Assembly: GCA_012646185.1 (NCBI GenBank)
Contig: GCA_012646185.1_4706.1
Reading direction: 5' to 3' (one strand)
DNA length: 64,000 nucleotides
DNA from: a phage
The position numbers and the translations under genes were made by a program. Shown one piece after another: positions 8,494 to 61,203 of the stretch. Each line of letters begins with the position of its first letter. The stretch's first letter is position 1. Below the pieces are notes generated by a model. It saw only the letters and a program-made list of their open reading frames with translations, did no database searches and was not told the origin of the DNA.

Positions 8494-8555
8494 CAAAAAA
8501 AAAAAAATAGGAAAATAGGAAAAACGGTGTTCACCCCTAAAAAGGATGAACACCG
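8494..8555 (-). terminator. intrinsic terminator for minus-strand transcript: 9-bp stem hairpin (8525-8555) followed by a T14 run (A14 on plus, 8494-8507)
   Basis: Inverted repeat cggtgttca/tgaacaccg with 13-nt loop, directly after stop of 8576-9154 gene. Confidence 0.6.
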
Positions 8556-13788: not shown

Positions 13789-14106
13789 TTAGTTTGCGCG
13801 TAAGAAATGACCCAGAACCGTTACGATTGGAAACAGCCCTGTAACAGTATCATCGCCCGAAAACATCATCATTGTTCCGTTAACGGTGATGAAACGGATG
13901 TCGGTTGCGGACCCATCGATAGCGACAAAACGCATCGAGTTCGGTGGAAGGTCCTCAACCACTTCCACGAGATACTCGCGATTATCAAAGGCTTCTTTAA
14001 CACGACGCATGAAACGAATCAATGTTCCTTCCGCGTCGGCTTCCAAATGACCTAAGATATCGCGATTATTACGACTAGCAAATACAGCCATTTTAAACAT
14101 ACACAT
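13789..14106 (-). CDS. hypothetical protein (105 aa)
   Basis: ORF with AAAAGGA before ATG at 14106; conserved 20-mer about 70 nt upstream. Confidence 0.5.
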   Translation of the reverse strand: MCMFKMAVFASRNNRDILGHLEADAEGTLIRFMRRVKEAFDNREYLVEVVEDLPPNSMRFVAIDGSATDIRFITVNGTMMMFSGDDTVTGLFPIVTVLGHFLRAN

Positions 14107-14176
14107 CTTGACATCCTTTTATATTGGATTGATTGCTAATAGTTCAAGGTGAAGCTGATTACTGCATTGCTTCACC

Positions 14177-14196
14177 TAAGTAATATAGCCGTGAAA
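14177..14196 (-). promoter_or_regulatory. conserved 20-mer taagtaatatagccgtgaaa (minus-sense TTTCACGGCTATATTACTTA), candidate early promoter element
   Basis: Identical 20-mer recurs at 42189-42208; both are intergenic and upstream of minus-strand genes; contains TATATTAC. Confidence 0.4.
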
Positions 14197-14214
14197 ATTA
14201 ATGTATTAACCTAT

Positions 14215-15625: not shown

Positions 15626-15703
15626 GATTACTGTCCTTTTGAAATATGTTTAGATAAGGAGGATTTACCGGGTATTAAAAAGTTATTTGGTGTGTAATGT
15701 TTT

Positions 15704-16303
15704 TTACTTAGGTTCCAGTGTTGGTCCGAACAACCAGAATGTCAGACGCTGGTAAACCTGTTCGATGACTGCGGCTTCTGTTTGCTCTTCTAGTGCTTTC
15801 CCTTTCTTATGTTGTATTTCTGGCGGGATGTCGCCGTTGTAAACATACCCTGCTGAGAAGTCCCACGCCAGCCGTTTACCGAAAGTAGGTAAGAACACCT
15901 CTTCGAATCGGAACGCTTTCGAATTCCAATGCAACAGCTGATCGGATTCAACATGTAAAGCTTTATTACGTTTGCTTGGCATGTTTCCGAAGTACTGAAC
16001 GATAGCTGATTTCATAACCTGATCTGCGAAGTCTTTGGCTTCGGCCTCATCGAGGGGAGGCAGACGATGTGATAGATTCAGCTTGCGTTGTTCAACATCG
16101 ATCTTACGCATCGCTTTAATCAAATCACTAGGAACGATTTTACCCTTATGGCCTTCCTGTCGGTGTATGAAACACCCCTGGAATAACACGCAAAGTTCTT
16201 GAGGCGCGCTACTTTCCATTCGTCCGTAAGCAACGATCACCGAACGACGACGATCAATAACTTCGCGGATAAACCGCGGCTCAGTAATACTCACCACTGT
16301 CAT
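15704..16303 (-). CDS. hypothetical protein (199 aa)
   Basis: ORF, co-oriented. Confidence 0.55.
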   Translation of the reverse strand: MTVVSITEPRFIREVIDRRRSVIVAYGRMESSAPQELCVLFQGCFIHRQEGHKGKIVPSDLIKAMRKIDVEQRKLNLSHRLPPLDEAEAKDFADQVMKSAIVQYFGNMPSKRNKALHVESDQLLHWNSKAFRFEEVFLPTFGKRLAWDFSAGYVYNGDIPPEIQHKKGKALEEQTEAAVIEQVYQRLTFWLFGPTLEPK

Positions 16304-34329: not shown

Positions 34330-35655
34330 TCACTTCAAAAGCTTAGACACCGCCATGCTTCGCGCCATCGCAACGTCATACGCATCCATGATCGCGTCAC
34401 CGATAGCGGTATGACGGATCAACGGAATACCCATATCTGGATACTCTTTGGTGCCTAAGATGGATACCGGTTTGTCTTGATACGCGGCAACCATCGAACG
34501 AATATCCTGAACCTGGTTATAACGGCAGATTGGTTTGAAGCCCGCTTTACGGAACCAATGCTCTAATTGCGGCCAATCTGTTTCACCACGAGCAAGATAA
34601 TAGAAGGTATCTTTACCGTAGTATTCGGTCATTTTGTCACGAATACTGTTGACGAACGCATTTACTTCGGCGATGGCTTCTTTATAACCCATTGCCTTAC
34701 AATGTTGAAAACAATAGTCGCGCGCTTCCTTTGGTGCTTTGGTTTGCCACCATTCTACTGTTGATTCACTGATACGACCACCGTCAGCGATTTGACCATG
34801 AACGTCAGGGAAGATATCTATACGCGGACCGTTAACAATGGATTCTGGATTAGCCAGATCGAAGAACACGATACCGATTTCCAGCAATACTCCATTCTTT
34901 TCCAGACTAAGGTTTTCAACATCTAAACAAAATGCGGGCTTCTCTACCGCTAACGGCTCGAACGAATGGTTGCTGGTATCCGATTCGGTTTTAAGTTCGA
35001 CGACAGCCGGATCGGTATCCGTAGGTTTCAGTTCTACTACAGCATCATCGAGTCCCGATAACGAAAAATAGTCTTCGAAGAAATCGGATATCGTCATACC
35101 ATGCAAATTGATATCGCAATCTTCCAACCATTGCTTCAACTGGTGCTCACCGGCATGAATCGCTAAACGGCACGGTCCGGAACGATCATCTAGCGCTGCA
35201 TCGATCCAGAAGAAAGCGCGTATAAGTAAGTAAGGATTATACTCCGCGATGATTTCTTGGCTAGCCGAGAAATCGTACACCATTAGTTGTATTATTCCCT
35301 TACGCGTGTTATACGGATCAACTTTCAATCGACGCACTATTTCTTCTACGAATTCCAACGCGCGCGTGTACGAGGTGGACCCACCTTGTTCATACGAACA
35401 TATACCCGTCAAAAGTTCCTTATAGGACGCATATGGAACCATAGGCGATAATTTGTACGACAGTTCAGTATTGTAATTATCGCATAATTTCTTCGGGGCG
35501 ATAGCATCCTGTATCGCTGTAATAAACGCCGGTCCATCAATATCAAACAACCATCCTTGACGCCGGTATGCAGTGTACCGTAATAACGCACCGATAACTG
35601 CCTGGGGCGGTGTATATTCTTTCCCGTTAATTTCAAACAGTAGTTTGCTCATCAT
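34330..35655 (-). CDS. protein with C-terminal DEDDh 3'-5' exonuclease domain (DnaQ/RNase T-like) and unknown N-terminal domain
   Basis: Exo I-like FCLDVENLSL, central YYLARGETDW, Exo III-like HTAIGDAIMDAYDV in the C-terminal ~190 aa. Confidence 0.6.
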   Translation of the reverse strand: MMSKLLFEINGKEYTPPQAVIGALLRYTAYRRQGWLFDIDGPAFITAIQDAIAPKKLCDNYNTELSYKLSPMVPYASYKELLTGICSYEQGGSTSYTRALEFVEEIVRRLKVDPYNTRKGIIQLMVYDFSASQEIIAEYNPYLLIRAFFWIDAALDDRSGPCRLAIHAGEHQLKQWLEDCDINLHGMTISDFFEDYFSLSGLDDAVVELKPTDTDPAVVELKTESDTSNHSFEPLAVEKPAFCLDVENLSLEKNGVLLEIGIVFFDLANPESIVNGPRIDIFPDVHGQIADGGRISESTVEWWQTKAPKEARDYCFQHCKAMGYKEAIAEVNAFVNSIRDKMTEYYGKDTFYYLARGETDWPQLEHWFRKAGFKPICRYNQVQDIRSMVAAYQDKPVSILGTKEYPDMGIPLIRHTAIGDAIMDAYDVAMARSMAVSKLLK

Positions 35656-35667
35656 AACACCTTTTCA

Positions 35668-41456: not shown

Positions 41457-42143
41457 TTAACACATGATTTCACCATGTTTCTTTTCAACATACGTATAAA
41501 CGTCATCCAAATAAGCAATGAGTTTATCACGATCCGCACAGAGCGATTTAATCACCGCAATCTCTTTCATATAAAGCTGCTGACCTAACGCCGGATACGT
41601 AATCCATGCGTAGCCGTCAGGCGCAAATTTAGAAATAAGATAATCAGCGGTTTCCTGTAATGCGAACTCTTTACTCATCTGGCCGTAACGATGTTCGATT
41701 GCACGGATACCAAAACGTTCGTTATCAAGACGACCCATATCCGCCAAACGAAGCACCTGAGAAGCAACCGAGCTACGTGGACCAGAGTACGAGGCACGAT
41801 GTTCAGCAATAAGTACGCGTATCTCCTCGATGTCCTCCGGTGTGAAAATATGCTGCTCGTTACGAAGCAGGATAACCGATGCACGAATACCCCCGATAAG
41901 GTGGTGGTATGTTCTGTTTTCGTGGCAAGCGATATCATGCATAAAAGCAGCGGTTAATAGACGACGACGTTCCGTGGGTCTGATGATCCCAACCACATCA
42001 GCAAGTTCATTTGCCAGTTCAACAACAGCAAGCACATGTTCTTCTTGATGTGCAAGATCGTTCTTCCGAATATTTTCAATTACTTCAGCGCGTGTTTCCT
42101 GAGATAAGAAATTTAAACAATCCAACGAATATAAAGATTTCAT
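41457..42143 (-). CDS. HD-domain phosphohydrolase-like protein
   Basis: HEEHVLAVVELA ... AAFMHDIACHE ... histidine and aspartate pattern typical of HD domain. Confidence 0.55.
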   Translation of the reverse strand: MKSLYSLDCLNFLSQETRAEVIENIRKNDLAHQEEHVLAVVELANELADVVGIIRPTERRRLLTAAFMHDIACHENRTYHHLIGGIRASVILLRNEQHIFTPEDIEEIRVLIAEHRASYSGPRSSVASQVLRLADMGRLDNERFGIRAIEHRYGQMSKEFALQETADYLISKFAPDGYAWITYPALGQQLYMKEIAVIKSLCADRDKLIAYLDDVYTYVEKKHGEIMC

Positions 42144-42188
42144 CGCACGTACCTCTTTGAATCTATTAATAAATTTTCTTTACTCACG

Positions 42189-42208
42189 TAAGTAATATAG
42201 CCGTGAAA
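42189..42208 (-). promoter_or_regulatory. second copy of conserved 20-mer taagtaatatagccgtgaaa, about 46 nt upstream of ATG at 42143
   Basis: Exact 20/20 identity with 14177-14196; lies in the divergent intergenic region. Confidence 0.4.
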
Positions 42209-42303
42209 GGATTTGTGTTGGTCCGTCTCGATGCCCATCGTATTTTATGGATTGTCGAATGACGTCATTTTAAGGGACATCCCCGGCCTCCTCCCCAGGA
42301 AAG

Positions 42304-44433
42304 GTGTGGGGAGGAGTTTTTATCATACATTCTATTAAATCGAGCGCGATTATGTTGGATAGAATCAATCGTTTAATGAACCGAATAACGGTTAAAAATC
42401 AGAGTAACAACACCGTGCATATCGGGGGTATCGATGCCTGGCGTCTTTCAGATGACATTCAGCGAATATGGGGTACCTCCCGATTTATGAAACATATGTT
42501 TCGTAATTTCTCTTCTAGTGGACTCAGTCTCCACAACTTTTACCTTCCCGATTTCGTTTATATTCTCGAAACGATCATCGAAGCAAAGAATACCCGTAGC
42601 AACAAACGCATGCTGAAACACCTTATTGAGGTACTGCTACAGGAAACCTGGCTGCAAAATACCACAATCGAGCAACCTGCAATCCTCGATAAAGCACGCA
42701 TGAACAAAATGCTAACGCTCTCTTTGTTCGATTATCAAGATGAGTTTATCGACATCTATAACCGTAACGTACCTAAATACCGACTGAAAGGATACGTGTG
42801 CGCGATGGGTGCTGGTGCGGGTAAAACAATCACCGCATTGGCTTTAAGCGCCGCAATGAACGTCGACGTATTTGTGGTCTGCTGTCCTAAGAACACCATG
42901 CGTTCAGCATGGCAATCCGATGTAAACAAAGCCATCGTTGACCCCGCAACAGAAACCGCGTTCTGGTCAGACACAATGCCACCATCACAGCTGCAGAAAA
43001 GCGATAAGTATTATTTTCTGCATTACGAATCGATGGGTTTATTAAACGATGTAATGATCAAGCATAAACGCACAGCGAAGCGCGTTCTTATTGTTGTTGA
43101 CGAAAGCCATAACTTCAACGACAAGAACAGCCAACGTTCCCAACGACTGGTTGATCTTGTACAGACAATGCGTCAAACCATGAATGCGGATGTGCACGTC
43201 TTGTTTATGTCGGGTACGCCTGTTAAACAAATGGGTTCTGAGATGATCCCCTGTTTAGGTTGTATCGACCCGATGTTCCAAGGACAGGTGGTCGATAGCT
43301 TCAAATCAATTTACGGTTTAACCAGCAGTCGCGCTAACGATATCCTCAGACATCGTCTTGGGTTCATGATGCATGTCGTACCTAAAGAGGCTTATCGTAA
43401 AACCCGTCCGGAAGTTCAGGACGTTTACGTGAAGCTCCCTAACGGTAGCGATTATACCATCTCAAGTATCCGCGACGACATGGCGGTATTTGTACGCGAT
43501 CGGGCGAAGTATTACAAGGATAACTGGGGGCATTACAGAAAGATTTTTGATGACGCCTTGGACTACTATCGTAAGACTATTCGTACCGATGGTGAACGTA
43601 AAGAGCTATCTCGATACGAATCGATTGTTACTCGTTTCCAGAAAGGTTACGATCCCGTCAGAGACAAAGAAGATGCGATGTTCTGCAATACGTTTGAAAA
43701 ACGAGCGATCATGCCGGTTCTTCCTTCCGATTTAAGGATCGCTTTCAAAGACGCCAAGAGCGTCATCAAGTACGTTGGGTTGAAAATTCAGGGTGAAGCG
43801 TTAGCGCGCGTTCTCGGTGCAGCCCGCATTCGGTGTCATGTCGACATGGTGGAGTACATCGACTTCGAAGGGTACATCAACAACGCTGAAGCCAAAGTGT
43901 TGATCTTCACGTCGTACGTTCAGGTGGTTGAGCGCGTCGACAACCTGCTTCGTGATGCGGGTTTCTTACCGGAACCCATTTACGGGAAGACCAACAAAAA
44001 CATCAACCAAATACTTGCTCGTCTACGCGATGATCCTGACAGCGGTCCCGCTATTGCAACATTTGATAGCTTAGCTGAAGGGGTTCCGATGCTGATGTGT
44101 AATGTCGGCCTTTTCCTGAACAACCCGTGGCGTTCATCCGATGAAATCCAAGCCATCAGCCGTCTCGATCGCGTAGGACAAACGCAGCCTGTTCGGATTT
44201 ATCGTTTCATGTTGGATACAGGAAGCGAGGGTAACGTTTCTACACGTAGCCACGAAATCATGGAGTTAAGTCGACAGCTTGTTGAAGAAATCACGGGTGT
44301 CAAATATGTTGTGAACAAGCAAGATGATGTTAACTTGCAAGAAACGTTGGCAATGGAAGGATACGACCAATACGTTACCGTAAACACCACGGAATACGAT
44401 ATTAAACCACGACCTGCGTTCTTGGAATGGTGA
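42304..44433 (+). CDS. superfamily 2 DNA/RNA helicase (DExH box)
   Basis: Walker A CAMGAGAGKTITAL, motif II VVDESHNF, motif III FMSGTPV, helicase C-terminal region; true start may be ATG at 42352. Confidence 0.7.
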   Translation: MWGGVFIIHSIKSSAIMLDRINRLMNRITVKNQSNNTVHIGGIDAWRLSDDIQRIWGTSRFMKHMFRNFSSSGLSLHNFYLPDFVYILETIIEAKNTRSNKRMLKHLIEVLLQETWLQNTTIEQPAILDKARMNKMLTLSLFDYQDEFIDIYNRNVPKYRLKGYVCAMGAGAGKTITALALSAAMNVDVFVVCCPKNTMRSAWQSDVNKAIVDPATETAFWSDTMPPSQLQKSDKYYFLHYESMGLLNDVMIKHKRTAKRVLIVVDESHNFNDKNSQRSQRLVDLVQTMRQTMNADVHVLFMSGTPVKQMGSEMIPCLGCIDPMFQGQVVDSFKSIYGLTSSRANDILRHRLGFMMHVVPKEAYRKTRPEVQDVYVKLPNGSDYTISSIRDDMAVFVRDRAKYYKDNWGHYRKIFDDALDYYRKTIRTDGERKELSRYESIVTRFQKGYDPVRDKEDAMFCNTFEKRAIMPVLPSDLRIAFKDAKSVIKYVGLKIQGEALARVLGAARIRCHVDMVEYIDFEGYINNAEAKVLIFTSYVQVVERVDNLLRDAGFLPEPIYGKTNKNINQILARLRDDPDSGPAIATFDSLAEGVPMLMCNVGLFLNNPWRSSDEIQAISRLDRVGQTQPVRIYRFMLDTGSEGNVSTRSHEIMELSRQLVEEITGVKYVVNKQDDVNLQETLAMEGYDQYVTVNTTEYDIKPRPAFLEW

Positions 44434-44534: not shown

Positions 44535-45986
44535 ATGAAACTTAAACAAAGCTGGAAAGACGAACTTCTCGCGTTAGTAAATAGCAAAAACAGCTTACAG
44601 CTGACATTAGCCGACGTAAAATTTGAACTAACTGAACCGGTAAGCGAAGTGCCCGGAACGGTTGTCGTTACGATCAAACCGAACGATGATAGCCGTTACT
44701 TTAACGAGCAGTCTCTGACCTACATCCGTCGAGACATCGCTAAAAACTTCACCGGGATCCCGTTACGGGTTATCGTTAAAAATGATACCGCCGTAAGGGA
44801 TATCATCAATACGATTGCTGAACGTTACGGATTGGTATTTGACACAACCATCGACTTCCTCGAATCCGAGCTGAATAAGCAGATTACGTTCGAAGACACC
44901 GGTATTAAAGACATTACGGTTCCGGTTGCAAACACGTCTTATGTTTGGGCTGGTAATCTTCAGTTCAATATCGCTAACGATACGTTGAGCTTGATTACGA
45001 TCATCAAGCAAACCAATCTTACGAATCTGGTTTATCTGGATGGTGTTGAATCTAACACATCGGGTTCGTTACTATTAGCAACGACCTCGGTTATCGGCGA
45101 AAACGGAAATGCCGAAACAACTGAAGGTGTCCTTGACGCCGCGTACTTCCAGAATATCCTGAACGTCATGGTTCGTTATGGTGATATTACCAGCGAACAA
45201 ATGCAACAAGCAATGCAGACAATTAACGGAAGCGAAGACGCTCGTAGAGTAGAGGTGCGGTCATACGGTGACGCCGAATTACTGGTAACCACCAAGAAAG
45301 ATTGGGTTATCGGTAGCCTTAAGGGTGCTATGGTTGTTGGTCACGCTTCACCTAAACCAATCCAATACGTTCTTAAAACAAAAGGCGGCACCATTATATT
45401 GTCATTAGATGGTTGGACAAATGTCAATATCGATTGGGGTGATGGGAATAAGACGACGCAGGACTCAGGCGATAATGAATATCAGCACAATTATGCGGAC
45501 ACTACAGAACGTACGATCGTCGCTACGGGTACCCCTACCAACGTTGGAGATACAGACGTACAGCAAAGCTTCACCGGTGGTAACATCACTGAAATCGTTG
45601 ACTGGAACAACGGATTACCTAAGGCCCCATCATTACTTGCAGCGAACAGTTTAACTAAGGTTCCCGATTATATCCCGGCATACTGGACATCGTTAGAAGG
45701 TATGTTTACGCGATGCAGCGCTATTAACGACGTGAACATCACCAAATGGAACACCCGCAACGTTACTTCAATGAAGGACCTCTTCTACGGTTGCGCTACG
45801 TTCAACCAACCGATCGGTTCGTGGGATGTTTCGTCTGTTAAGAATGCAGACAATATGTTGTCTGGGTGCTTCGCGTTCAATCAGGATCTGAGTGGTTGGA
45901 CATTCCCGGCAGGCACTTCACACATCAACTACGACGCCATGACCGCCGCATGGCAGGCTGGTTATAAACCACACTTCACCGAGTAA
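44535..45986 (+). CDS. two-domain protein: shared N-terminal module plus C-terminal DUF285/BspA-like repeats; candidate fiber or adhesin
   Basis: N-terminus parallels 3261-3788 and 7605-8435; C-terminus has repeats MFTRCSAINDVNITKWNTRNVTSMKDLFYGCATFNQPIGSWDVSSVKNADNMLSGCFAFNQDLSGW. Confidence 0.65.
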   Translation: MKLKQSWKDELLALVNSKNSLQLTLADVKFELTEPVSEVPGTVVVTIKPNDDSRYFNEQSLTYIRRDIAKNFTGIPLRVIVKNDTAVRDIINTIAERYGLVFDTTIDFLESELNKQITFEDTGIKDITVPVANTSYVWAGNLQFNIANDTLSLITIIKQTNLTNLVYLDGVESNTSGSLLLATTSVIGENGNAETTEGVLDAAYFQNILNVMVRYGDITSEQMQQAMQTINGSEDARRVEVRSYGDAELLVTTKKDWVIGSLKGAMVVGHASPKPIQYVLKTKGGTIILSLDGWTNVNIDWGDGNKTTQDSGDNEYQHNYADTTERTIVATGTPTNVGDTDVQQSFTGGNITEIVDWNNGLPKAPSLLAANSLTKVPDYIPAYWTSLEGMFTRCSAINDVNITKWNTRNVTSMKDLFYGCATFNQPIGSWDVSSVKNADNMLSGCFAFNQDLSGWTFPAGTSHINYDAMTAAWQAGYKPHFTE

Positions 45987-46044
45987 AAAAAAAAAAAAAT
46001 AGATAGCATATCTTCCTCCCTACCCATAACGGGCGGGGAGGAAG
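45985..46044. terminator. bidirectional terminator at convergent junction: A15 run (45985-45999) plus extended GC hairpin (46012-46044)
   Basis: cttcctccc/gggaggaag arms with inner ccc/ggg stem; T15 in minus sense follows the hairpin after stop of 46062-46400. Confidence 0.55.
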
Positions 46045-46061: not shown

Positions 46062-46400
46062 TTAGAACCAGAGTTCTTTCATGAAGTAGGCTTCCATATC
46101 GTAGATAAGCCACTCGTCAGGGATTTCTAAAGGATCGTCTTCGGTTAAGGTCAGCATGTGCAGGGCGAACGCACGCTTAATATCGTTCAGCAGTTTCTCG
46201 TCGTCGTAACCTTCGGGTAGTTTACGGTCTACCAGCTGGGTTTGTTTATAGACGTCGCGGAATGCTTCAGGGCTGTGTTTGTCCATCGGAAATTGTTCAG
46301 CAGCCTGAACCATAGAAAGCGTCCAGCTTACAACATTGTAACGCTCACCATTAATTTCACTGAACTGATCATCGATTAAACAGATTTGTTGTACGTTCAT
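46062..46400 (-). CDS. hypothetical protein (112 aa)
   Basis: ORF, last gene of the long minus-strand block. Confidence 0.5.
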   Translation of the reverse strand: MNVQQICLIDDQFSEINGERYNVVSWTLSMVQAAEQFPMDKHSPEAFRDVYKQTQLVDRKLPEGYDDEKLLNDIKRAFALHMLTLTEDDPLEIPDEWLIYDMEAYFMKELWF

Positions 46401-47358: not shown

Positions 47359-48933
47359 TTACAATTCAAAATCTTCATCGATAACACGCTGGGTAAGCAC
47401 TTTGTCGCTGAAGAACTCCACCTTGCGCTGATGGTATTTACGGTGCGCTTCGATAGAAGTACATACCAGATACCAGAACGTTGGCGTCATTCCTTCAAAC
47501 TTCCCTTTCAGCTGACGCAGTCGCCCCAACACCTGAATGTTGCCGGTTCGTGACCCCATCGCTAACGTCATGAACGTCATCACCAAGTCAGGGAGGTCGA
47601 TACCTGTACCTGCCGATTTCACCGTCGTAACGCTAATATCGTTATCCAGCAAGACCATGAAATCTTCTTCAGCAGTATAAGGACCGATCTCTAGCTCAGG
47701 AATACGCTCACTGAGATAGTGCGACAACGACTTACACATATCAACGGTTGCACAATACACCAGCATCTTCATGCCTTCCTGATACTGGTTCATGAAACCT
47801 TTGATGATAACGGTATAGATGAAGTTAAAATACGCGAGTTTGAGTTGCTTGTTCTTCATGATAGACTGTTCGAATATCGTGTGTGAATAAGCTCCGCCAA
47901 ACCCTTTGTATCTGACTTTATCTGTACTGCGTAGTCGATATGTTACCGCATTTACCGCAATATATTTCTTGTATTCGCCTTTTGCATAACGGGCTTCTTT
48001 CGGATACATCAAATACAACATCTGTTCGATAAACGGATCATCGGACACCGCCGTTGCCGACAGATAAATGATTTCCGGAATACTGGCGTAACACTTGACC
48101 TTAAACAAGAAATGCAATGCTTCGTGACACTCGTCATGAATCAGCAAACCTATGCCGGTCTTTTCCCAAAACTCAGCGGGATGAAAGGCATATGGCGCAA
48201 CGCAGTTATTCTTCTCGTAGTCCGCAATATAACGTTGGAACATGTTCAAGGAGAACAATGCGATTTTGAAGTCGAGCTCACCTTGTTCAACCAAGGTTTG
48301 AAACTCCAGCATGCTGTAACGAGGAATGTCGGGATGTGGTGGATCCTCCTTAGCGTTCCCGCGTATCTCAATAACGTCCCCTGGTTCCATCCCGAAGAAG
48401 TTCAGCAGTGAGCTTCGCCAACCTGGCATGTATCTCGGCGACAGAATGATACCCGTCCGTACACCACGTCGGAAGGTAATCTCCTGCGACATGGCCGTTT
48501 TTCCTGACCCCGTTTGAGCGGTGTTTAGGCTCATTCTGAAGGGGGTATCCTTACCCCCGTCCATGTACTCCAACCATTCTTGCTGATCTTGACGCCATGG
48601 AAACTTCCATTTCTTTACGAACTCCACTTCTTTACCTGGTACCGGATCGTGATAGACGATTTCCAACCACTCTTTTCGTATCCCTCGGGAAAAGATAAAA
48701 TCCAAAAACGATTTCAACTGTTCACGGAGTAAGTATACCTCGCTATAATCGCTTCTCGCCGCGGCATACGTGTTTATGGTATCGGTAACCATTCTCCGTG
48801 TACGAGGGTCACGCCGTTTCCTCAGATGCAAACAACGGTCTCGAAGGTAATGGCCTATCAAATGGGCAAATCGAAGTCCGTATCCGCTCAGCCTCATGCC
48901 ATGCGAGAAGACGTCGATACGAGCTAACTTCAT
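47359..48933 (-). CDS. superfamily 2 helicase (DExH box)
   Basis: Walker A TAQTGSGKTAMS, motif II LLIHDECHE, SAT motif YLSATAV, motif VI QVLGRLRQ. Confidence 0.65.
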   Translation of the reverse strand: MKLARIDVFSHGMRLSGYGLRFAHLIGHYLRDRCLHLRKRRDPRTRRMVTDTINTYAAARSDYSEVYLLREQLKSFLDFIFSRGIRKEWLEIVYHDPVPGKEVEFVKKWKFPWRQDQQEWLEYMDGGKDTPFRMSLNTAQTGSGKTAMSQEITFRRGVRTGIILSPRYMPGWRSSLLNFFGMEPGDVIEIRGNAKEDPPHPDIPRYSMLEFQTLVEQGELDFKIALFSLNMFQRYIADYEKNNCVAPYAFHPAEFWEKTGIGLLIHDECHEALHFLFKVKCYASIPEIIYLSATAVSDDPFIEQMLYLMYPKEARYAKGEYKKYIAVNAVTYRLRSTDKVRYKGFGGAYSHTIFEQSIMKNKQLKLAYFNFIYTVIIKGFMNQYQEGMKMLVYCATVDMCKSLSHYLSERIPELEIGPYTAEEDFMVLLDNDISVTTVKSAGTGIDLPDLVMTFMTLAMGSRTGNIQVLGRLRQLKGKFEGMTPTFWYLVCTSIEAHRKYHQRKVEFFSDKVLTQRVIDEDFEL

Positions 48934-50936
48934 AACGTGATTACATCCTCCGGTTTAGGTTCTTTACGCGGTAACAGCATGTAGTCGATCGGATGATCTG
49001 GCTTCATGGTTGGGATATAACTGTTCGGGTTTTGGAACGCATCCAGTTGCTCTTGGTGAGCGAACTTCATACTCAAGGAGCGCATGTTCATGTTCTTCTT
49101 GAAGGTACTGAAGTATCGTGTTGTTCCCTGTTTCGGCATGCGATAATCTTTCGTGTGCGGCGAACGAATCATGCTGGCGTAGAGAATAACATCGAGATGC
49201 GAAAGGTTCATTCGCAGACGCTGAGCGCACAGACGATGCCAATAGTACAGCACGTTTGCAACTTCTTCCGGCGTTGCTTCGTCTTCCGAGAGGAATCCGG
49301 CACTGAAAGAACCTTTCCCGAATTTGAACTCACGTTCGATTTCTTTTGCGTATTCCATCATGTTTTTGTGGATTAACGGCATCTGGAATAACGTACGTGA
49401 ATTGTCCCAATGTTTCAAGTCGAAAATCACAATCCCGTCAGGCGTCACTTCCCAGCTATGGCGTTTAAGATAACGGATAAACGCTTTACTCGGTACAACA
49501 GGACGACCGCAGAAATCGAAATTGACTTTGAGCTTACGATAGCTTTCATCTTTCCTGTCGTAAATCTCCATATCGCAAAGCGTCATGTTGAACAGACGCT
49601 GTGGTATCAGCGAACTGATTTCTTCCGCTTCGGCTACGTCGTACAACATGTTAGCAAGACCTAACTTCATCTTAATCAACACGTGTTTACCTTTCAGCTC
49701 ACGTGCGAGTTTGATGTCGTTCATGTTCTGGCTGTAGCGAAGGATATGCTGATATTCCGGTGGGATTGGTGCTGTAGAGACCGTTGACGAACCATCGTGG
49801 TGTTTGGTAGAAAGAATGTTCTGCGTTACCTGTTGCGAGCAGGTACGCGCTGCACCATCGCCGACATTATCAGTCAATGCGAAGTTATGACTTAATTCAC
49901 CGTAACACGTTGTACATACCCCAGCAGGATCGGGATGATGACAATAGTTAACGGAGCGCATGCGTACCGTCGTGCCGATCAATTCTTTCATGTGTGGTTG
50001 TATCGCTACCAACGAACCGTCGTCACGAATAATGAATCGACCGTGGAAACCACGCAGGTCGGTCTCATCGCGGATTGGCATCGGGATGGTCTCTTTACTA
50101 CCACAATCACCAGGATGAAGTCGTTGTACAACCGCTGTCGCTATCTGAAGTTCACGACCGAAATATTCAGACTTTTTAATCTGCTCTTTGTTGAACAGCA
50201 ACGATTTCGCCGCAGAACGACTTTCTTTCAAGCTGTCAGGAAGAGAGATCAAACCGGCTGCGTACGACCGCATTACCGGATCGCGGAATATCTCGGAGTT
50301 AATATCAGTCAAGAATCCACGCATCCCAATACACTGTAGCACCTGCCCAATCGAAACGTGTTCGGTTCTTACCGCACGTGCGATAGGGTTTGCATGTAAC
50401 GTTTTATCGGTGCTCAGTACCTTCGTCAGTTTCTTGTATGCGCTTTCAATGCCTTCGCGGGTGGGTTCCGCTTCGGCGATGATTTTCTTAACTTCGGGGT
50501 GTACAGTAATCTGATAAAAATCATCCGCGCAAATCGTTGTTACGTATTCCTCCAACGCATACGTAAAGAAGTTATATACATTGTTAAACATATCGAACAG
50601 TGCTTTCCAGAGAACCTCACGATTCTCTTGTGGATAAGCATACATGCATTGACGATACGCTGCGCTTTGCAACGCAACCGATGAACCCGCTGTGAACTTG
50701 CGTTTATCGACCAGGTTCTCTTTTGTCAATGGTGTCTCAGGATACATGCGATGTACAGACCAGTGCATGTAACTAAAGAAAATGCGTCGCGCACGTAATT
50801 CATGAACGCCATCGTCCATCTCGATATATACACGGTCATTAGGCTGTGCCCATTCGAACACCTCATCAACCGGCCAATGCATAAGCTCGCGTGCCCTCAC
50901 ACGACGTTTCGTGGTGGTTGTCTGTGTTGTAATCAT
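48930..50936 (-). CDS. RNA polymerase beta-prime-like subunit (C-terminal-type fragment of a split phage multisubunit RNAP)
   Basis: RSVNYCHHPDPAGVCTTCYG (nt ~49900-49945) parallels E. coli beta-prime SVVSCDTDFGVCAHCYG; following GDGAARTCSQQVTQNILSTKHHDG parallels the trigger-loop start [28 protein letters not shown]. Confidence 0.7.
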   Translation of the reverse strand: MITTQTTTTKRRVRARELMHWPVDEVFEWAQPNDRVYIEMDDGVHELRARRIFFSYMHWSVHRMYPETPLTKENLVDKRKFTAGSSVALQSAAYRQCMYAYPQENREVLWKALFDMFNNVYNFFTYALEEYVTTICADDFYQITVHPEVKKIIAEAEPTREGIESAYKKLTKVLSTDKTLHANPIARAVRTEHVSIGQVLQCIGMRGFLTDINSEIFRDPVMRSYAAGLISLPDSLKESRSAAKSLLFNKEQIKKSEYFGRELQIATAVVQRLHPGDCGSKETIPMPIRDETDLRGFHGRFIIRDDGSLVAIQPHMKELIGTTVRMRSVNYCHHPDPAGVCTTCYGELSHNFALTDNVGDGAARTCSQQVTQNILSTKHHDGSSTVSTAPIPPEYQHILRYSQNMNDIKLARELKGKHVLIKMKLGLANMLYDVAEAEEISSLIPQRLFNMTLCDMEIYDRKDESYRKLKVNFDFCGRPVVPSKAFIRYLKRHSWEVTPDGIVIFDLKHWDNSRTLFQMPLIHKNMMEYAKEIEREFKFGKGSFSAGFLSEDEATPEEVANVLYYWHRLCAQRLRMNLSHLDVILYASMIRSPHTKDYRMPKQGTTRYFSTFKKNMNMRSLSMKFAHQEQLDAFQNPNSYIPTMKPDHPIDYMLLPRKEPKPEDVITL

Positions 50937-51081
50937 TATTACTTTCCGATTTAAATGGTTTTATCATACGGTTTACCAATTCCGTTGGAATTTACTATCA
51001 TCATGATAGCATCGGGAATCCCTTCTCTTAGGTTATGTAGGTGTTAATATATCTCCACTGCCGGAGTAAAAGTCGGCAACA

Positions 51082-53007: not shown

Positions 53008-55176
53008 TTAGCTTTCGCAGTCATCTGCGTCGATGATTTGTCCGCCAGCAACGTTCAGTTGATGATACAGAATCCTCAACGCACGGTTGCCGCCAATGGG
53101 ATACTTCTCGAAGTTGGTTGCAATAGGAATCGCTGACGGTTTATCGGTCGCATAGATGCTTTCAGTGATGCTATCCACCTGTTTTGGATTGTTCGCATAA
53201 TCCATAAAGACGCTCGCGAACCATCCGCCAGCAAAGGCGGTAACTTCGCGATGTTCAGATTCACCACAGTAACGAGTTGGTTGCTCTTTACCCGGAGAAC
53301 TGTATTTATCGCTATTACTGAGTTTCGACGGTAGTCCATGCGCTTGCAGTTTAGGGATGCCCACCGCTGACCAGTCGTTCGCCGTCTTCTCCAACATCAT
53401 GATGTACGTGTCACCGATCGCAATATCGTTCTTGGTTGTCCGCCACTGCCCAGAACGCCCACGATACCGTACAGGACCTTTCTTCAACGGGAACTCACGA
53501 ATCAGATTCTCCATACGTTCTGAACCTGCTGCGATACTGTCTGTCGGGATATAAACTTCCGTACCGTGGCGTTGTACGTACCGTAAATGATCCCATTTAT
53601 CCTCATCCGTGATACAGTATTTTTCAACAACCTGTTCCACGAATTCAGGACTGACGATATAGTAGTAGCGCATCAGTGTGTTCCAAGCGGTCTCCAGATC
53701 GCCTGCATCCATCACCGGTTTCAGTTCACGCATGATCTGATCACCAACGCCGTTGATGTAAGGTGCGTTAACACGACTTAAACTCATCCTTTTGATTACC
53801 GTACTATCGTCGAACATGAAGTCCGCAACGTTACCCCATTGGTCAACCGGCATTTCATCGTCTTCCATGATGTCGGTTACGACGAATTTATCACCCGCCA
53901 TACCGGTGAATTTAAACCCGATACCTGGAACAACGTCGTACGTGTACGTGATGGTCACACGCCAATCATCGAGATTCTCTTTACGATAATCGCGGGTCGG
54001 TAACACATGACGTAGCTGTCCGTTGGGATTGCGGATATCAATACCGTGTTCAGCATCAGCCAGGTTCAACCACCACATCACCGTTTGATGATGACGTATC
54101 GGCGTACCAACGCGTTCACGTTCGTACTTACGAACAGCATCCTGAATTCGGGTGTAAAGCAAACCAATCGCGTTCTCGTATTTCAGGAATTGACGATACG
54201 GAGGACGCATCTTCTCTTCCATCATAATCGCACGCTCGCGGGCTTGACGTCCAGAACGACGATGCCGGTCGCTGACAACATCGATATCCGTTACACGCGC
54301 ATTCGGTTCCGCGTAAGTGAGGTCGTCGTAAACATAATCCACGCGCTGAAGATTACACGTCATCATGTCAACAACGCTGAGGATAGGATCGATTTCGCGT
54401 GTTGCTGCAAGTAACCCATCCTTACGAATACGCTCACCGTTCTCGGGTATTGCTTGATATACCTCATCGTCACCGTAGAGATTGATTGGGTATCGTGATT
54501 TACCTGATGTGATCGTCCGCTTCTCAATGCCGGTACTGGTGAAATGCTTCAATACACCACGACGGGCAACACCACCATCCTCGATACACTGATAGAAGCT
54601 ACCGAAACACACTTTGCAATCGCGACCGTAACCCCACTCGCGCGTTTCTTGATTGATCGCTGGGCTTTCCATCAAACGAGAATATCGCGGTACGATCTGG
54701 CCTCGACGAAGGGAATGGAACAAGTTGGTTGGTCGAAAACGGAAACCGTACTGCTGATGCATGATGTGATGCTCAGGCACTTCAAGCAAGCGTAGCTCGT
54801 GACGGTTACCATCCTCTTGGTTTTCATACAGCACGTAATGCATCGTGTTTGTTTTGATGCTGTTTGCTGTATGCCCCGGTTGGAAACGTGGGATGATATC
54901 TATGATGCGAGATTCGACTGGAAACTCTACTGACCACGTGTTCTGTCCGTACTGGTATTCGATCCCCGTCGTCAGTCGGGACGGTTTCGCATCTTTGATA
55001 ACCAACGCTTGGCTAAGATGTCCACCAAACATCGCAGCGCGCTGTGCTGAGTTATAATGCAGTAGCCCGTTAAGTCCAGTCCCTACGCCAGTATACTCCT
55101 GTTTAATGGGAATGATTTTACCTTCAGCGATTGCCTGCTTCACAGATTCATAAAGAGGTTTTTCTTTATAATGCAT
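53008..55176 (-). CDS. RNA polymerase beta-like subunit (C-terminal-type fragment of a split phage multisubunit RNAP)
   Basis: [40 protein letters not shown] parallels E. coli beta [56 protein letters not shown] parallels [45 protein letters not shown] parallels [28 protein letters not shown], with matching spacing. Start moved to ATG 55176 with AGGAAG SD. Confidence 0.75.
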   Translation of the reverse strand: [722 protein letters not shown]

Positions 55177-55206
55177 AGGACTTCCTATTATCGAATTGAG
55201 GTACGT

Positions 55207-55561
55207 CATGTCTAACACGCCCCTGAACGACTTTCTTAAGACAAACCCCGATGACCTCATCCACGATCTTGATTTCAGGAACGTTGTTGAGATGCATCTG
55301 GAATATTTCAAAAATGCCGGACTGGTCTCTACGATAGACATACCACCCGAACGCGCCTACGAATTCGATGGTAACTTTTATGGATTGTGTCGTGTTCTGC
55401 TCGGCGAGGGTAGCGAACCAATGCACTGGATAACCATGAGACTCAATGGTTATCGCGACCCTACGGAATACACCGCCGATGTTCTAACCATGAAGATTGT
55501 CGATACAAGCGCAATCAACACATTAAAACAACAGTACCGCACAATCCACTACAGCGCTTAA
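55207..55561 (+). CDS. hypothetical protein (~118 aa), lone plus-strand gene inside the minus block
   Basis: ATG at 55207 preceded by GAGGT; followed by hairpin 55567-55595; could be spurious. Confidence 0.35.
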
Positions 55562-58550: not shown

Positions 58551-60137
58551 TTATTTTTTTCCTCTTAAATTTACTACGTGTTCATTTAATCGAACAACTA
58601 ATTGCACAAGCTGCTGACGGATATCTGCTGGACAAAGCATCAATCCTTTACGGTCAGCTGGGACTTTCTCAAGGATTTCCGGGCCTGCTGCTGAAACATC
58701 CCAGTCCCATTCACAAAACGCATCGGCCACCATGTTAATACCGACAACCGGTAAAGTTGTACGTTCATCTTCATACATGGCGTGTGGATACAATTTATTG
58801 ACAGTAATGATCTCCTGTGGTTTTAATTGGTGGATAATCTGATAAACATCGTCGCGTTTGACCTGGATACCTACGGTCAGCGCTGCCAGTTGAGGAAAAC
58901 CCCAATGGTCTAATAAGCAAGCTGCAATCGCTAACGCTTTTGCTTGATGCACGGCTTCAATCGGTGCCAGACTTCTCGCCGGAAGATGGCTATCAAGCAA
59001 CCATTGTGCCAGTGCTCGGCATCCACGGTTGATTGGTTTTAACTCAACGGTGTCATCATGTTTAGCGTACGTGTATCCGTCGTAACGTTTTGCGATACGC
59101 GCATACATGTCTTCAACTTTACCGTAAGGTGCCGTTTCGTCGACGTCGTGCAACACACGTTCCATCTGGGTAAGATACGCGATATCAAGAATGAGTACAC
59201 GCGGTGAACGTTTATCTTTCACCATCAACGCATCAATCACGCCTTGACTGTCTTCATCTTGCGCGTTCCCTCGTGGGGTTTTCTCACGAATCGGTCCGCT
59301 GAAACGTCGTTCCGTACAAAGGTTATTCACATAGCTAAAGATCAGTGTTACCAGATGCGTACAACTCACCAACACCCCATCTTTAACGACAGGCTGTACG
59401 GCTTGGTCCAAGTCGCGTACGGCGAGACGGCGGACGATGGCTTGTGAACGCAACCAGCCGGGCACTTTCTCCGTCGACATGTAATCCACGGTCATCGACA
59501 GCGTGATCTTTTTATCACCCGTCTGTGCGCGGATATAGTCTTCCAGTCGGTCGTAAGCGGCGATATCGTGAATGCGTGTTTTATACATCAACGACATAGC
59601 CACTTCTTCTTTACGAACCGTTCCGTACGTTTTCCCTGCGTCAATCAGAAACTCTGCCCAAATCGGCACCATCAGACGGACGTAGATCGCTAACGCCGTT
59701 AACTCAACGTAATCATTTCGTAAATAGGTTTTCTCAGGAATATCATCCTCACCTAATGTTGTTTTCATGTCCGGCGGTAATTTTACCCAACCCGGGGTAT
59801 TACACAACGCCAGAATCTCTTCGTACACAACCGGTTTGTAAATTTCACCAACAGCGCGACTCAACTCCTCCATTTGTTGTTGTGGAGCAATGTAGTTATC
59901 CATCGCTTCACGTGCTTTAACGAACCCTTCGAAGATGTCGTCAATTCGACGTGGGTTCTTTTGTTCTATCCAGGCGAGATACTTGTTAATCTCCCGCATC
60001 TGATTGCTAGCCATATCCCCATCAATCTTGATGTAACCCTGACCTGAAAATTCCACAGTACGTCCATCACGGTGTTTGATGAGATAGTGATCCAGCTTTT
60101 CTTTTCCTTGCGTCGTAATGACGGGCACTATGTGCAT
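58551..60137 (-). CDS. hypothetical protein (~528 aa)
   Basis: Start moved to ATG 60137 (MHIVPV) with AAGAGG SD. Confidence 0.6.
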   Translation of the reverse strand: MHIVPVITTQGKEKLDHYLIKHRDGRTVEFSGQGYIKIDGDMASNQMREINKYLAWIEQKNPRRIDDIFEGFVKAREAMDNYIAPQQQMEELSRAVGEIYKPVVYEEILALCNTPGWVKLPPDMKTTLGEDDIPEKTYLRNDYVELTALAIYVRLMVPIWAEFLIDAGKTYGTVRKEEVAMSLMYKTRIHDIAAYDRLEDYIRAQTGDKKITLSMTVDYMSTEKVPGWLRSQAIVRRLAVRDLDQAVQPVVKDGVLVSCTHLVTLIFSYVNNLCTERRFSGPIREKTPRGNAQDEDSQGVIDALMVKDKRSPRVLILDIAYLTQMERVLHDVDETAPYGKVEDMYARIAKRYDGYTYAKHDDTVELKPINRGCRALAQWLLDSHLPARSLAPIEAVHQAKALAIAACLLDHWGFPQLAALTVGIQVKRDDVYQIIHQLKPQEIITVNKLYPHAMYEDERTTLPVVGINMVADAFCEWDWDVSAAGPEILEKVPADRKGLMLCPADIRQQLVQLVVRLNEHVVNLRGKK

Positions 60138-60194
60138 AACAACCTCTTTTCGCGGTTCCCTGTTAAAACGTCTTCTGTGACGTCTACCACAAAG

Positions 60195-60210
60195 GTAATA
60201 TAAGCGTGAA
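60195..60210 (-). promoter_or_regulatory. variant of the conserved promoter-like element (gtaatataagcgtgaa), about 58 nt upstream of ATG at 60137
   Basis: Matches the 20-mer at 14177 and 42189 at 14 of 16 positions; minus-sense reads TTCACGCTTATATTAC. Confidence 0.3.
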
Positions 60211-60341
60211 TAATTTTGGATTCCGGCTGAGTTATCGCTCAGCATGCAAGGCATCCCGCCGAAGCGAGACACCTTGCACTAACGGAAAATATTCGCGTTA
60301 CCTTCTGAATCGAAGACTCAGAATGCGATGCTAAAGCGTTA

Positions 60342-61130
60342 TTAGAACGCTAAGCCATCAAAGGCTATGGACGGATCGTCGTCGTCATTTGCGCTTGGCG
60401 CATCCCAACGGGTATCAGGGGCCGCTGAAGCCGAACTTGATGCGTTAGAGTTACCGTTGTACTGGCCATTACCAGCATTACGGTTACCGCCGCCGTTGTT
60501 ATTGTTACGGTTATAGCTATTGTTGCCATTACTTACGCTACGGCTTTCACCGTCGAAATTGGTTGCGAGGATGCTCGGCAACACTGCGCGATGAATACGT
60601 ACAAATTCCAACGCACAAAGCGGAGAAACAACCCCGATCTGTAAAGGTTGCCCAGACTCATCAACCAGAGCGTGGAAACGCGGCGGCTTGAATACGAATT
60701 GGATGTTCGGTTTTTGGTACGCTGTTACAGCGATATATACCGAACCATCATCGTTCTTACCAACCCATGTTGTACTTTCGGTAATCTGTTTCTTCTTACC
60801 TGGGTTATTGCGATCGTCGATAACCTTTTCGTTCTTCATCGCAAAACGTTGGCCTGGTTTACCCTTAGCAACCTGCTCGAGGATCGCAAGCAGGTTATAG
60901 AACGCGTATGAACTCATGCGCGCCCAAATGCTTTCAGCGCGACCCTGCTGGTCTTTACGACCGGTGTAAACCGTGATACGCGGTTGATTCTTAGCAACGC
61001 TAATTTTCAATGAGGGGATTGAATTACCGCCCTCAACCTTTTCGTCCGCCCACAGTTTCCAGTTGTTGTCGTCATACGCTGTAGGAATAATGTTTCCTTG
61101 TGGTTTACTGCCCGAATTCCAATTGCTCAT
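60342..61130 (-). CDS. putative single-stranded DNA-binding protein (SSB-like architecture)
   Basis: Globular N-terminal part, then Asn/Gly-rich linker (NRNNNNGGGNRNAGNGQYNGNSN) and acidic C-terminal tip DDDDPSIAFDGLAF, reminiscent of SSB tails ending DDDIPF. Confidence 0.45.
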   Translation of the reverse strand: MSNWNSGSKPQGNIIPTAYDDNNWKLWADEKVEGGNSIPSLKISVAKNQPRITVYTGRKDQQGRAESIWARMSSYAFYNLLAILEQVAKGKPGQRFAMKNEKVIDDRNNPGKKKQITESTTWVGKNDDGSVYIAVTAYQKPNIQFVFKPPRFHALVDESGQPLQIGVVSPLCALEFVRIHRAVLPSILATNFDGESRSVSNGNNSYNRNNNNGGGNRNAGNGQYNGNSNASSSASAAPDTRWDAPSANDDDDPSIAFDGLAF

Positions 61131-61203
61131 TTTCAGCCTCGTTACGTAGTGTGAATCAATTTCTGGTTCAGATGATAGTCAATATTAGTTAAAAATTACA
61201 GCC

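Follow-up and report, generated by a model that had tools for sequence, protein, structure and literature searches.

What does a 20-nucleotide (nt) sequence that occurs twice in a phage genome, each time shortly upstream of a gene, contribute to the expression of that genome? The question arises in a 64,000-nt stretch of phage DNA (GenBank assembly GCA_012646185.1, contig GCA_012646185.1_4706.1), called the window below and always meant at its full length, in which TAAGTAATATAGCCGTGAAA (plus-strand letters) is present in two exact copies, at 14177-14196 and 42189-42208. These copies lie within two sites, S1 and S2, which together with a third site, S3, are here interpreted as phiKZ-type early promoters read by the virion RNA polymerase, with a probability of roughly 0.88. 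This interpretation draws on the architecture, position, orientation and conservation of the sites, on their match to mapped phiKZ promoters, and on steps in the early RNA sequencing (RNA-seq) profile of a close relative, Escherichia phage vB_EcoM_Goslar (Goslar). Recognition of the motif by the virion polymerase we infer by analogy with phiKZ.

Goslar is a nucleus-forming jumbo phage of the Chimalliviridae and the E. coli model for such phages. It shares 94.5-96.3% nucleotide identity with most of the window, which corresponds to ~99.3-164.6 kilobases (kb) of its genome. The complete annotated Goslar genome (237 kb) was used for a genome-wide census, and IMG/VR supplied two more Goslar relatives, one of which (UViG_3300011560_000001) is ~94% identical. 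The literature searched held no description of Goslar early promoters.

Architecture and conservation of the three strong sites

The initial annotation had described the two 20-mers as identical, intergenic and 45-70 nt upstream of minus-strand genes, in good agreement with the distances measured from the end of the 20-mer, 71 nt (ATG at 14106) and 46 nt (ATG at 42143). Exact 20-mer pairs are expected by chance at ~0.004 in the window; no third copy with up to three mismatches was found there, and none appeared in 100 shuffles. The close variant that had been noted at 60195-60210, TTCACGCTTATATTAC, matches the 20-mer at 14 of 16 positions and lies, counted from the core C, 58 nt upstream of the ATG at 60137 that opens the gene 58551-60137. 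On the minus strand, the three sites read ttaatacattaaTTTTCACGGCTATATTACTTAGGTGAag (S1, ATG at 14106), caacacaaatccTTTCACGGCTATATTACTTACGTGAgt (S2, ATG at 42143) and ggaatccaaaattaTTCACGCTTATATTACCTTTGTGGta (S3, ATG at 60137), and all of them are intergenic, lie between minus-strand open reading frames (ORFs), and are placed 49-74 nt upstream of start codons. The full motif is TTTCACG-N2-TATATTAC-N4-(G)TGA, with the exact TATATTAC core on the minus strand at 14180-14187, 42192-42199 and 60195-60202. The core is preceded by a T-rich element (TTTCACGGC or TTCACGCT) and followed by TTAGGTG, TTACGTG or CTTTGTG. Similarity among the sites spans ~25-37 nt, and the likeness between S1 and S2 ends after 25 nt in local alignment (TTTCACGGCTATATTACTTA-N-GTGA), so what the sites share is a short motif, as opposed to a piece of a longer dispersed repeat. 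The sites and their parts, all on the minus strand, are as follows.

14173-14209, minus strand: predicted early promoter S1, TTAATACATTAA-TTTTCACGGC-TATATTAC-TTAGG-TG; core 14180-14187, TTTTCACGGC element 14188-14197, predicted start G 14173, 67-nt leader
42185-42221, minus strand: predicted early promoter S2, CAAATCC-TTTCACGGC-TATATTAC-TTACG-TG; core 42192-42199, predicted start G 42185, 42-nt leader
60188-60224, minus strand: predicted early promoter S3, GGAATCCAAAATTA-TTCACGCT-TATATTAC-CTTTG-TG; core 60195-60202, predicted start G 60188, 51-nt leader

The start nucleotides 14173, 42185 and 60188 (Goslar 113783, 142786 and 160777) are predictions, made by transferring the core-to-start spacing of mapped phiKZ promoters to the window phage.

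The early promoters of phiKZ were reportedly described by Ceyssens et al. in 2014 and by Wicke et al. in 2021. Their core is TATATTAC (PMC7058600 Table 2; bioRxiv 10.1101/2023.10.13.562163), and experimentally mapped phiKZ start sites are available in the supplement of Putzeys et al. (bioRxiv 10.1101/2023.10.13.562163). In nine mapped phiKZ early promoters, the start lies 7-8 nt past the final core C, on the G/A of (G/A)TG(A). S1-S3 share this layout, with a TTTCA element ~20 nt before the start, the core, and (G/A)TG 5-7 nt past the core C. Counts of the bare 8-mer, and of the 13-mer and 16-mer with three mismatches, are at chance level in the window; mismatch counts are thus uninformative, and a position matrix combined with gene context is needed. 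A matrix built from the nine mapped phiKZ promoters alone ranks S1, S3 and S2 first, second and third of ~128,000 window positions. Gene context points the same way: all three TATATTAC copies fall within the intergenic, coding-strand-facing 6.5% of the sequence (P ~3e-4 to 3e-5). The resemblance to a phiKZ early-promoter consensus that the initial annotation had pointed out is borne out by the published core, by the whole architecture and by the three top matrix hits.

Comparison with UViG_3300011560 reveals a different pattern of conservation at each site. At S1, the motif is kept save for one T-to-C change (the alternative consensus base), with eight substitutions in the 22 nt upstream. The S2 intergenic region shows no difference over 225 nt in that genome, and ~208 nt of it are 100% identical in three genomes of 94-96% overall identity. 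S3 carries a 38-nt insertion directly after TATATTACC, which restores CTCTATGA with TG at +6/+7; the promoter would thus be left intact while the 5' end of the mRNA is changed. The insertion (window ~60194) is flanked by a TTACCT direct repeat and contains a hairpin of its own, CCTCTATGA...TCATAGAGG.

An inverted repeat, GGTGAAGC-N13-GCTTCACC (14148-14176, minus strand), embeds the predicted S1 start. In UViG_3300011560, both of its stems are unchanged and four substitutions fall in the loop, a pattern that suggests selection on the structure; the repeat may form a 5'-terminal mRNA hairpin or be a DNA feature of the promoter. Folding of the predicted S1-S3 leaders gave no significant whole-leader structure (z scores -0.4, +0.55 and -1.7).

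Genome-wide census and early expression in Goslar

The genome-wide search that the initial annotation had proposed was carried out in Goslar. All ten TATATTAC copies in this genome lie on the minus strand, and eight of them are directly upstream of minus-strand genes: gp004, gp105 (S1), gp159 (S2), gp175 (S3), gp182, gp246 (chimallin), gp214 and gp200. The chance that at least eight of ten copies are intergenic is ~1e-8. Upstream of gp021, gp040, gp047 and gp075, a matrix derived from these eight sites recovers four further strong sites whose core is TACATTAC, after which scores fall from 27 to 12.7. Two weaker sites precede gp225 and gp165, the latter being the counterpart of a degenerate window site, S4. 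The Goslar total is thus 12 strong and two weaker copies (core TAYATTAC), 14/14 co-oriented with the downstream gene and 32-153 nt from a start codon. Together, the 12 strong sites yield the consensus tAAt.cAaaa..TTTCAcG.c-TAtATTAC-cTa.g-TGA, and the phiKZ-derived matrix places 9 of these 12 among its top 14 Goslar hits. Twelve Goslar sites are strictly intergenic. The strong site at Goslar 49725-49732 lies within the annotated 5' end of gp047, ~40 nt inside its start, which suggests that the annotated gp047 start codon is too far upstream.

Expression data are available for Goslar from Armbruster et al., who compared ChmA knock-down with control infections by RNA-seq (bioRxiv 10.1101/2023.09.20.558163). 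Under the knock-down, infection stalls at the early vesicle stage, with a transcriptome that corresponds to 5-20 min of normal infection (bioRxiv 10.1101/2023.09.20.558163). The polymerase presumably active at this stage is that of the virion. Per-gene counts from Supplementary Table 2 of that study, sampled at 30 min, served as a proxy for early expression. By log2 ratio, the genes fall into two classes, one maintained (~-1 to +1.4) and one lost (-3 to -8). Genes of the maintained class are grouped in nine blocks, and a predicted motif site heads 9/9 of them.

gp004-001: headed by Goslar site 2567
gp021-014: headed by Goslar site 15067
gp040-037: headed by Goslar site 43266
gp047-044: headed by Goslar site 49732
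gp075-070: headed by Goslar site 86705
gp159-094: headed by Goslar site 142800 (S2)
gp225 to gp162: headed by Goslar site 187639
gp214-216: headed by Goslar site 201944
gp200-201: headed by Goslar site 226695

Expression in this 96%-identical phage is kept or stepped up behind the motif sites when infection is arrested in the vesicle. Log2 ratios rise from +0.19 (gp106) to +1.08 (gp105) at S1, from -0.43 (gp176) to +0.93 (gp175) at S3, and from -3.3 (gp213) to +1.0 (gp214), and reads per base pair (bp) in the arrested sample go up ~2-fold at S1 and at S3. Beside S2, the plus-strand genes gp160 and gp161 have log2 ratios of ~-5 and almost no reads in the arrested sample, with gp159 at +1.0; because these neighbors are near-silent under arrest, the 209-nt intergenic region that bears S2 must contain the start of the gp159 operon. 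Motif-headed genes are detected from 5 min post infection and are kept when nucleus formation is blocked, whereas late genes drop 8- to 100-fold. The chmA sequence given in Extended Data Fig. 4 of the Goslar vesicle paper begins 91 nt upstream of the start codon, which is compatible with, and no test of, a predicted 66-nt leader. Reads per bp also approximately double from gp177 to gp176 (ChmC). The intergenic region upstream of gp176 (window 61131-61203, minus strand) contains no early-promoter motif and may hold a promoter of another class.

Transcription units and the polymerase genes

In the proposed mechanism, the 20-mer would be the central part of a ~37-bp promoter used in the first minutes of infection. 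A five-subunit virion polymerase, injected together with the phage DNA, would recognize the TATATTAC box at ~-10, the TTTCACG box at ~-20 and a looser A/T-rich region at ~-30, and would start 7 nt past the TATATTAC box, at the G of the conserved (G)TG(A). S2 would begin an early unit of ~34 kb, running from 42143 down to ~8576 and ending at a terminator near 8520, with S1 acting as an internal booster promoter inside this unit. S3 would restart transcription ahead of the non-virion polymerase genes. The genes and other features on which this scheme draws, all on the minus strand, are listed here.

13789-14106, minus strand: first gene after S1, 105 amino acids (aa), Goslar gp105 homolog, without known domain
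41457-42143, minus strand: first gene after S2, 228 aa, HD-domain phosphohydrolase (PF01966, E-value (E) 5e-8), Goslar gp159 homolog
58551-60137, minus strand: first gene after S3, full-length PHIKZ068 homolog (PDB 7ogp_B, 9rjs_B; E ~5e-28)
53008-55341, minus strand: PHIKZ071-type subunit (beta N-terminal part), E 1e-85, in the same early unit, downstream of S3
48930-50936, minus strand: PHIKZ074-type subunit (beta-prime C-terminal part), E 1.6e-86, downstream of S4
60226-60326, minus strand: three stable hairpins, minimum free energy -53 kcal/mol, z -4.65
8520-8555, minus strand: intrinsic terminator (stem 8525-8555), CGGTGTTCA...TGAACACCG followed by T5 and then a T13 run
51027-51061, minus strand: weak or degenerate candidate S4, GCAGTGGAGATATATTAACACC-TACATAAC-CTAAG

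The position of S3 is shared with other phages. PHIKZ068 is the sigma-like fifth, promoter-specificity subunit of the non-virion RNA polymerase, and S3 holds the same syntenic position as phiKZ P034, whose mapped early start (57998) lies directly upstream of PHIKZ068 in AAAAAAATTTGAGATCTATATTACTAACATG(+1) (bioRxiv 10.1101/2023.10.13.562163), and as the promoter of 201phi2-1 gp124, the PHIKZ068 ortholog, which has a mapped upstream start and is classed early. The region upstream of the gp68 homolog was compared in 10 phages of different genera. A TA(T/C)AT(T/C)A(C/T) core with TG at +6/+7 precedes the gene in nine of them (phiKZ, 201phi2-1, RAY, SPLA10, PhiEaH1, RSL2, Xoo-sp14, Moabite and KpLz-2_45), the tenth, a Vibrio phage, has a variant of the core, and a hairpin precedes the promoter in 10/10. 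In the window, the order of the module is a ChmC-like gene (60342-61130), the three hairpins, S3 and the gp68 homolog. The hairpins include a 16-bp stem with a UUCG loop, and their region is identical to Goslar at 203 of 204 positions. They have no U-tract and match no Rfam family, the Rfam scan of the whole window having found none; their likely role is that of a terminator or insulator of the unit upstream. Since the gene for the sigma-like subunit is the first behind S3, early transcription would yield the enzyme for middle and late transcription. The recurrence of this module (ChmC-like gene, hairpin, early promoter, sigma-like gene) in at least 10 genera points to a hard-wired hand-over from the first polymerase to the second.

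The initial annotation had tied the motif to the RNA polymerase genes in the window. This holds in that these genes are transcribed from the promoters described here, and fails in that they do not encode the virion polymerase expected to read the motif. The polymerase genes of the window are exclusively those of non-virion subunits (PHIKZ068, 071 and 074 homologs), and the idea that they encode the motif-reading enzyme was rejected on this ground. The Goslar virion polymerase consists of gp78, gp196, gp205, gp207 and gp210, found in virions by mass spectrometry, and the genes for these subunits lie outside the window. The longest ORF for the PHIKZ071-type gene spans 777 aa, against 722 aa in the Goslar annotation, and aligns to the PDB structure from residue 88 onward. 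At 53008-55341, the full ORF would overlap the plus-strand gp172 homolog (55196-55561), and translation probably starts at a codon downstream of 55341.

A looser site had been noted at about 51040, before the beta-prime gene. There, TATATTAA is indeed present at 51044-51051, upstream of the PHIKZ074 homolog (48930-50936), and the motif family is fitted better by TACATAAC at 51032-51039. This site, S4, has a matrix score of 10, against at least 27 for the strong sites. It has GGAGAT-N8-ACCTACATWACCT in common with Goslar site 187639, the head of the largest early block, and by its sequence can be placed in a GGAGAT-N8-ACCTACATWACC sub-type. Three genomes have exactly the same 35-nt S4 block, and the surrounding 145-nt intergenic region contains 16 differences between the window and Goslar. 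Goslar RNA-seq reveals a small step at this position, from ~0 (gp166) to ~+0.5 (gp165). S4 is probably a conserved but degenerate, weaker member of the motif family, and it may add a little transcription before the beta-prime C-terminal gene, with a weaker start predicted near 51025.

At the far end of the S2 unit, the terminator (8494-8555 including the T13 run) sits just after the gp094 homolog and coincides with the early/late boundary in Goslar, where gp094 has a log2 ratio of +0.6 and gp093 one of -5.4. At 42288-42321, a plus-strand hairpin, CTCCTCCCCA...TGGGGAGGAG followed by T5, separates S2 from the divergent late helicase gene; the Goslar annotation lists this hairpin as a plus-strand terminator, yet no plus-strand gene lies upstream of it.

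Elsewhere in the window, a run of 15 A at 45985-45999 overlaps the stop codon of the plus-strand gene 44535-45986, and at this run the gene converges with the minus-strand gene 46062-46400. Three regions depart from the general similarity to Goslar. Positions 1-1853, a tail-fibre gene region, are merely 83-89% identical; at 15657-15704, ~390 bp with Goslar gp108 are missing relative to Goslar; and at 34949-35663, ~700 bp in an exonuclease gene (gp147 homolog) find no alignment to Goslar.

Alternative explanations and comparison with known promoters

Several points weigh against the interpretation of S1-S3 as phiKZ-type early promoters. The core is not over-represented, the window holding three copies of the 8-mer TATATTAC against 2.5 expected. 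At S2 and S3, conservation covers the entire intergenic region and does not single out the motif. No start is mapped in the window phage, nor at nucleotide resolution in Goslar. The RNA-seq data come from a relative with 96% identity and consist of counts per gene at 30 min of an arrested infection, from a library of unknown strandedness, and the steps at S1 and S3 are just ~2-fold, for which differences in mRNA stability could partly account. Finally, recognition by the virion polymerase rests on the phiKZ analogy, and the literature yielded no in vitro motif binding for this polymerase family.

Host E. coli sigma-70 promoters, with TATATT as the -10 hexamer, would offer another source of early transcription. 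The hexamer equals TATAAT at five of six positions, an AT-rich box near -10 is also found in extended -10 promoters, and S1 has TTAATA at 16-nt spacing, which gives 9/12 sigma-70 matches. This match, all that sigma-70 and terminator scans around the sites turned up, is at chance level (0.9 expected in shuffled sequence), however, only 1/14 Goslar sites reaches it, and a scan around S2 and S3 found no sigma-70-type match. Unlike sigma-70 promoters, 13/14 sites have no -35 element at 16-18 nt, and conserved bases lie outside the sigma-70 elements: the most conserved columns, TTTCACG, the final core C and TGA at +6 to +8, have no counterpart there. Jumbo-phage polymerases also have no sigma-70 homolog, unlike the bacterial system. 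The same motif has been mapped in phiKZ as host-independent early promoters, and Goslar early transcription goes on in the vesicle-arrested state; host promoters are thus a very improbable explanation. An operator, bound near gene starts by a phage-encoded DNA-binding regulator and not itself a promoter, would equally produce short, conserved, intergenic and co-oriented sites, and would suit conservation that reaches well beyond the motif at S2 and S3. Against it, the motif is asymmetric and non-palindromic, keeps a constant distance of 7-8 nt to mapped primary 5' ends in phiKZ, and goes with rises, not falls, in early transcript level, and the promoter interpretation is the published consensus for the phiKZ-like family (PMC7598289). 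The operator is given as little credence as host promoters.

If the sites were instead promoters of the non-virion polymerase, of the middle or late class, the sampling of the RNA-seq proxy at 30 min post infection would be accommodated, and the non-virion subunits, whose own genes are transcribed under arrest, might conceivably be active there. However, phiKZ middle promoters have a TACT motif near -22 and late promoters have TATG at the start (PMC7598289; bioRxiv 10.1101/2023.10.13.562163), the matrix matches the experimentally defined early class of phiKZ, and the timing of the motif-headed genes in Goslar, seen from 5 min and kept without a nucleus, sets them apart from the falling late genes. 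The chance of this alternative is slimmer still. Least probable of all, to the point of being scarcely credible, is a dispersed repeat or mobile-element remnant with no role in transcription. Exact 20-mer copies 28 kb apart in the window, and four exact copies in Goslar, would fit such a repeat. Its extent of only 25 nt and the uniform orientation of all 14 Goslar sites at short distance from start codons do not, nor do the agreement of the sites with early-expression boundaries and the presence of the motif in phages whose proteins are <25% identical. The initial annotation had named a dispersed repeat unrelated to gene starts as an outcome that would overturn its proposal; the position, orientation and cross-genus conservation of the sites contradict it.

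With S1-S3 taken as early promoters of the virion polymerase, further proposals can be made. In Goslar-type phages, only about a dozen promoters of the virion polymerase may serve ~70% of the genes, which would imply early units of 30-40 kb transcribed from inside the injection vesicle, with boosters such as S1. The motif flavors TTTTCACGGC-TATATTAC-TTA, A-tract plus TTTCAGGG-TATATTAC-CTA, and GGAGAT-N8-ACCTACATWACC might be distinct functional sub-classes and might then differ in strength, timing or auxiliary factor. Hairpins enclosing the start (S1, and the 38-nt insertion at S3 in the sister genome) may be selected as a promoter feature or as a feature of the mRNA 5' end. As a joint picture of few promoters, long units, promoter sub-classes and selected start-site hairpins, these proposals are tentative and rather unlikely to hold in full.

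This is a well-known class of element, with predicted members in many phiKZ-like phages, and the established picture of phiKZ-type transcription is unchanged. What the Goslar set of ~12-14 promoters with predicted starts (3-4 of them in the window) adds is of practical use. It provides handles for reporters and for expression engineering in phage genomes, it indicates which genes share a transcript and thereby aids the reading of CRISPRi-ART and antisense knock-downs, and it offers templates for the biochemistry of promoter recognition by the virion polymerase.

According to a review, AT-rich motifs of ~10 nt near -10 must define the early promoters recognized by virion polymerases (PMC7598289). 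Like the early promoters of phiKZ (e.g. P034), the sites described here have an identical TATATTAC core and are intergenic, co-oriented and few per genome. In both, the core is immediately preceded by a T-rich element (TTTGAGATC in phiKZ, TTTCACGGC in the window) and followed after 5-7 nt by (G/A)TG, the mapped start being on the G in phiKZ. Unlike phiKZ, where the -20 element contains GAGATC, that of the window sites contains CACGGC/CACGCT. A long upstream A-tract, also unlike phiKZ, is present at some Goslar sites (chmA, gp214, gp200, gp040) and at 0/3 window sites. The number of sites differs as well, ~12-14 per 237 kb in Goslar versus 28-32 in phiKZ. Predicted early consensus sequences have been published for N1M2 (TTTCARRYAKATATTATYWAAGTG) and 201phi2-1 (TTTRARR-BTATATTACDWHDGTG) (PMC7058600). 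The window sites share the three-part layout, the spacing and the downstream GTG with the predicted promoters of 201phi2-1, OBP/N1M2 (TTTCARRYAKATATTATYWAAGTG) and EL (TTTYAAACCTACATTATY). The individual consensus bases differ, being specific to each lineage, and the proteins of these phages are <25-28% identical to those of the window. Four Goslar sites have a TACATTAC core, which is similar to TACATTAT, the core in EL and RAY, and in Serratia phage Moabite and Klebsiella phage KpLz-2_45 the TATATTAC core is preceded by TTTTCACGTA and TTTTCGTGCA, respectively, a -20 box that is nearly of the Goslar type.

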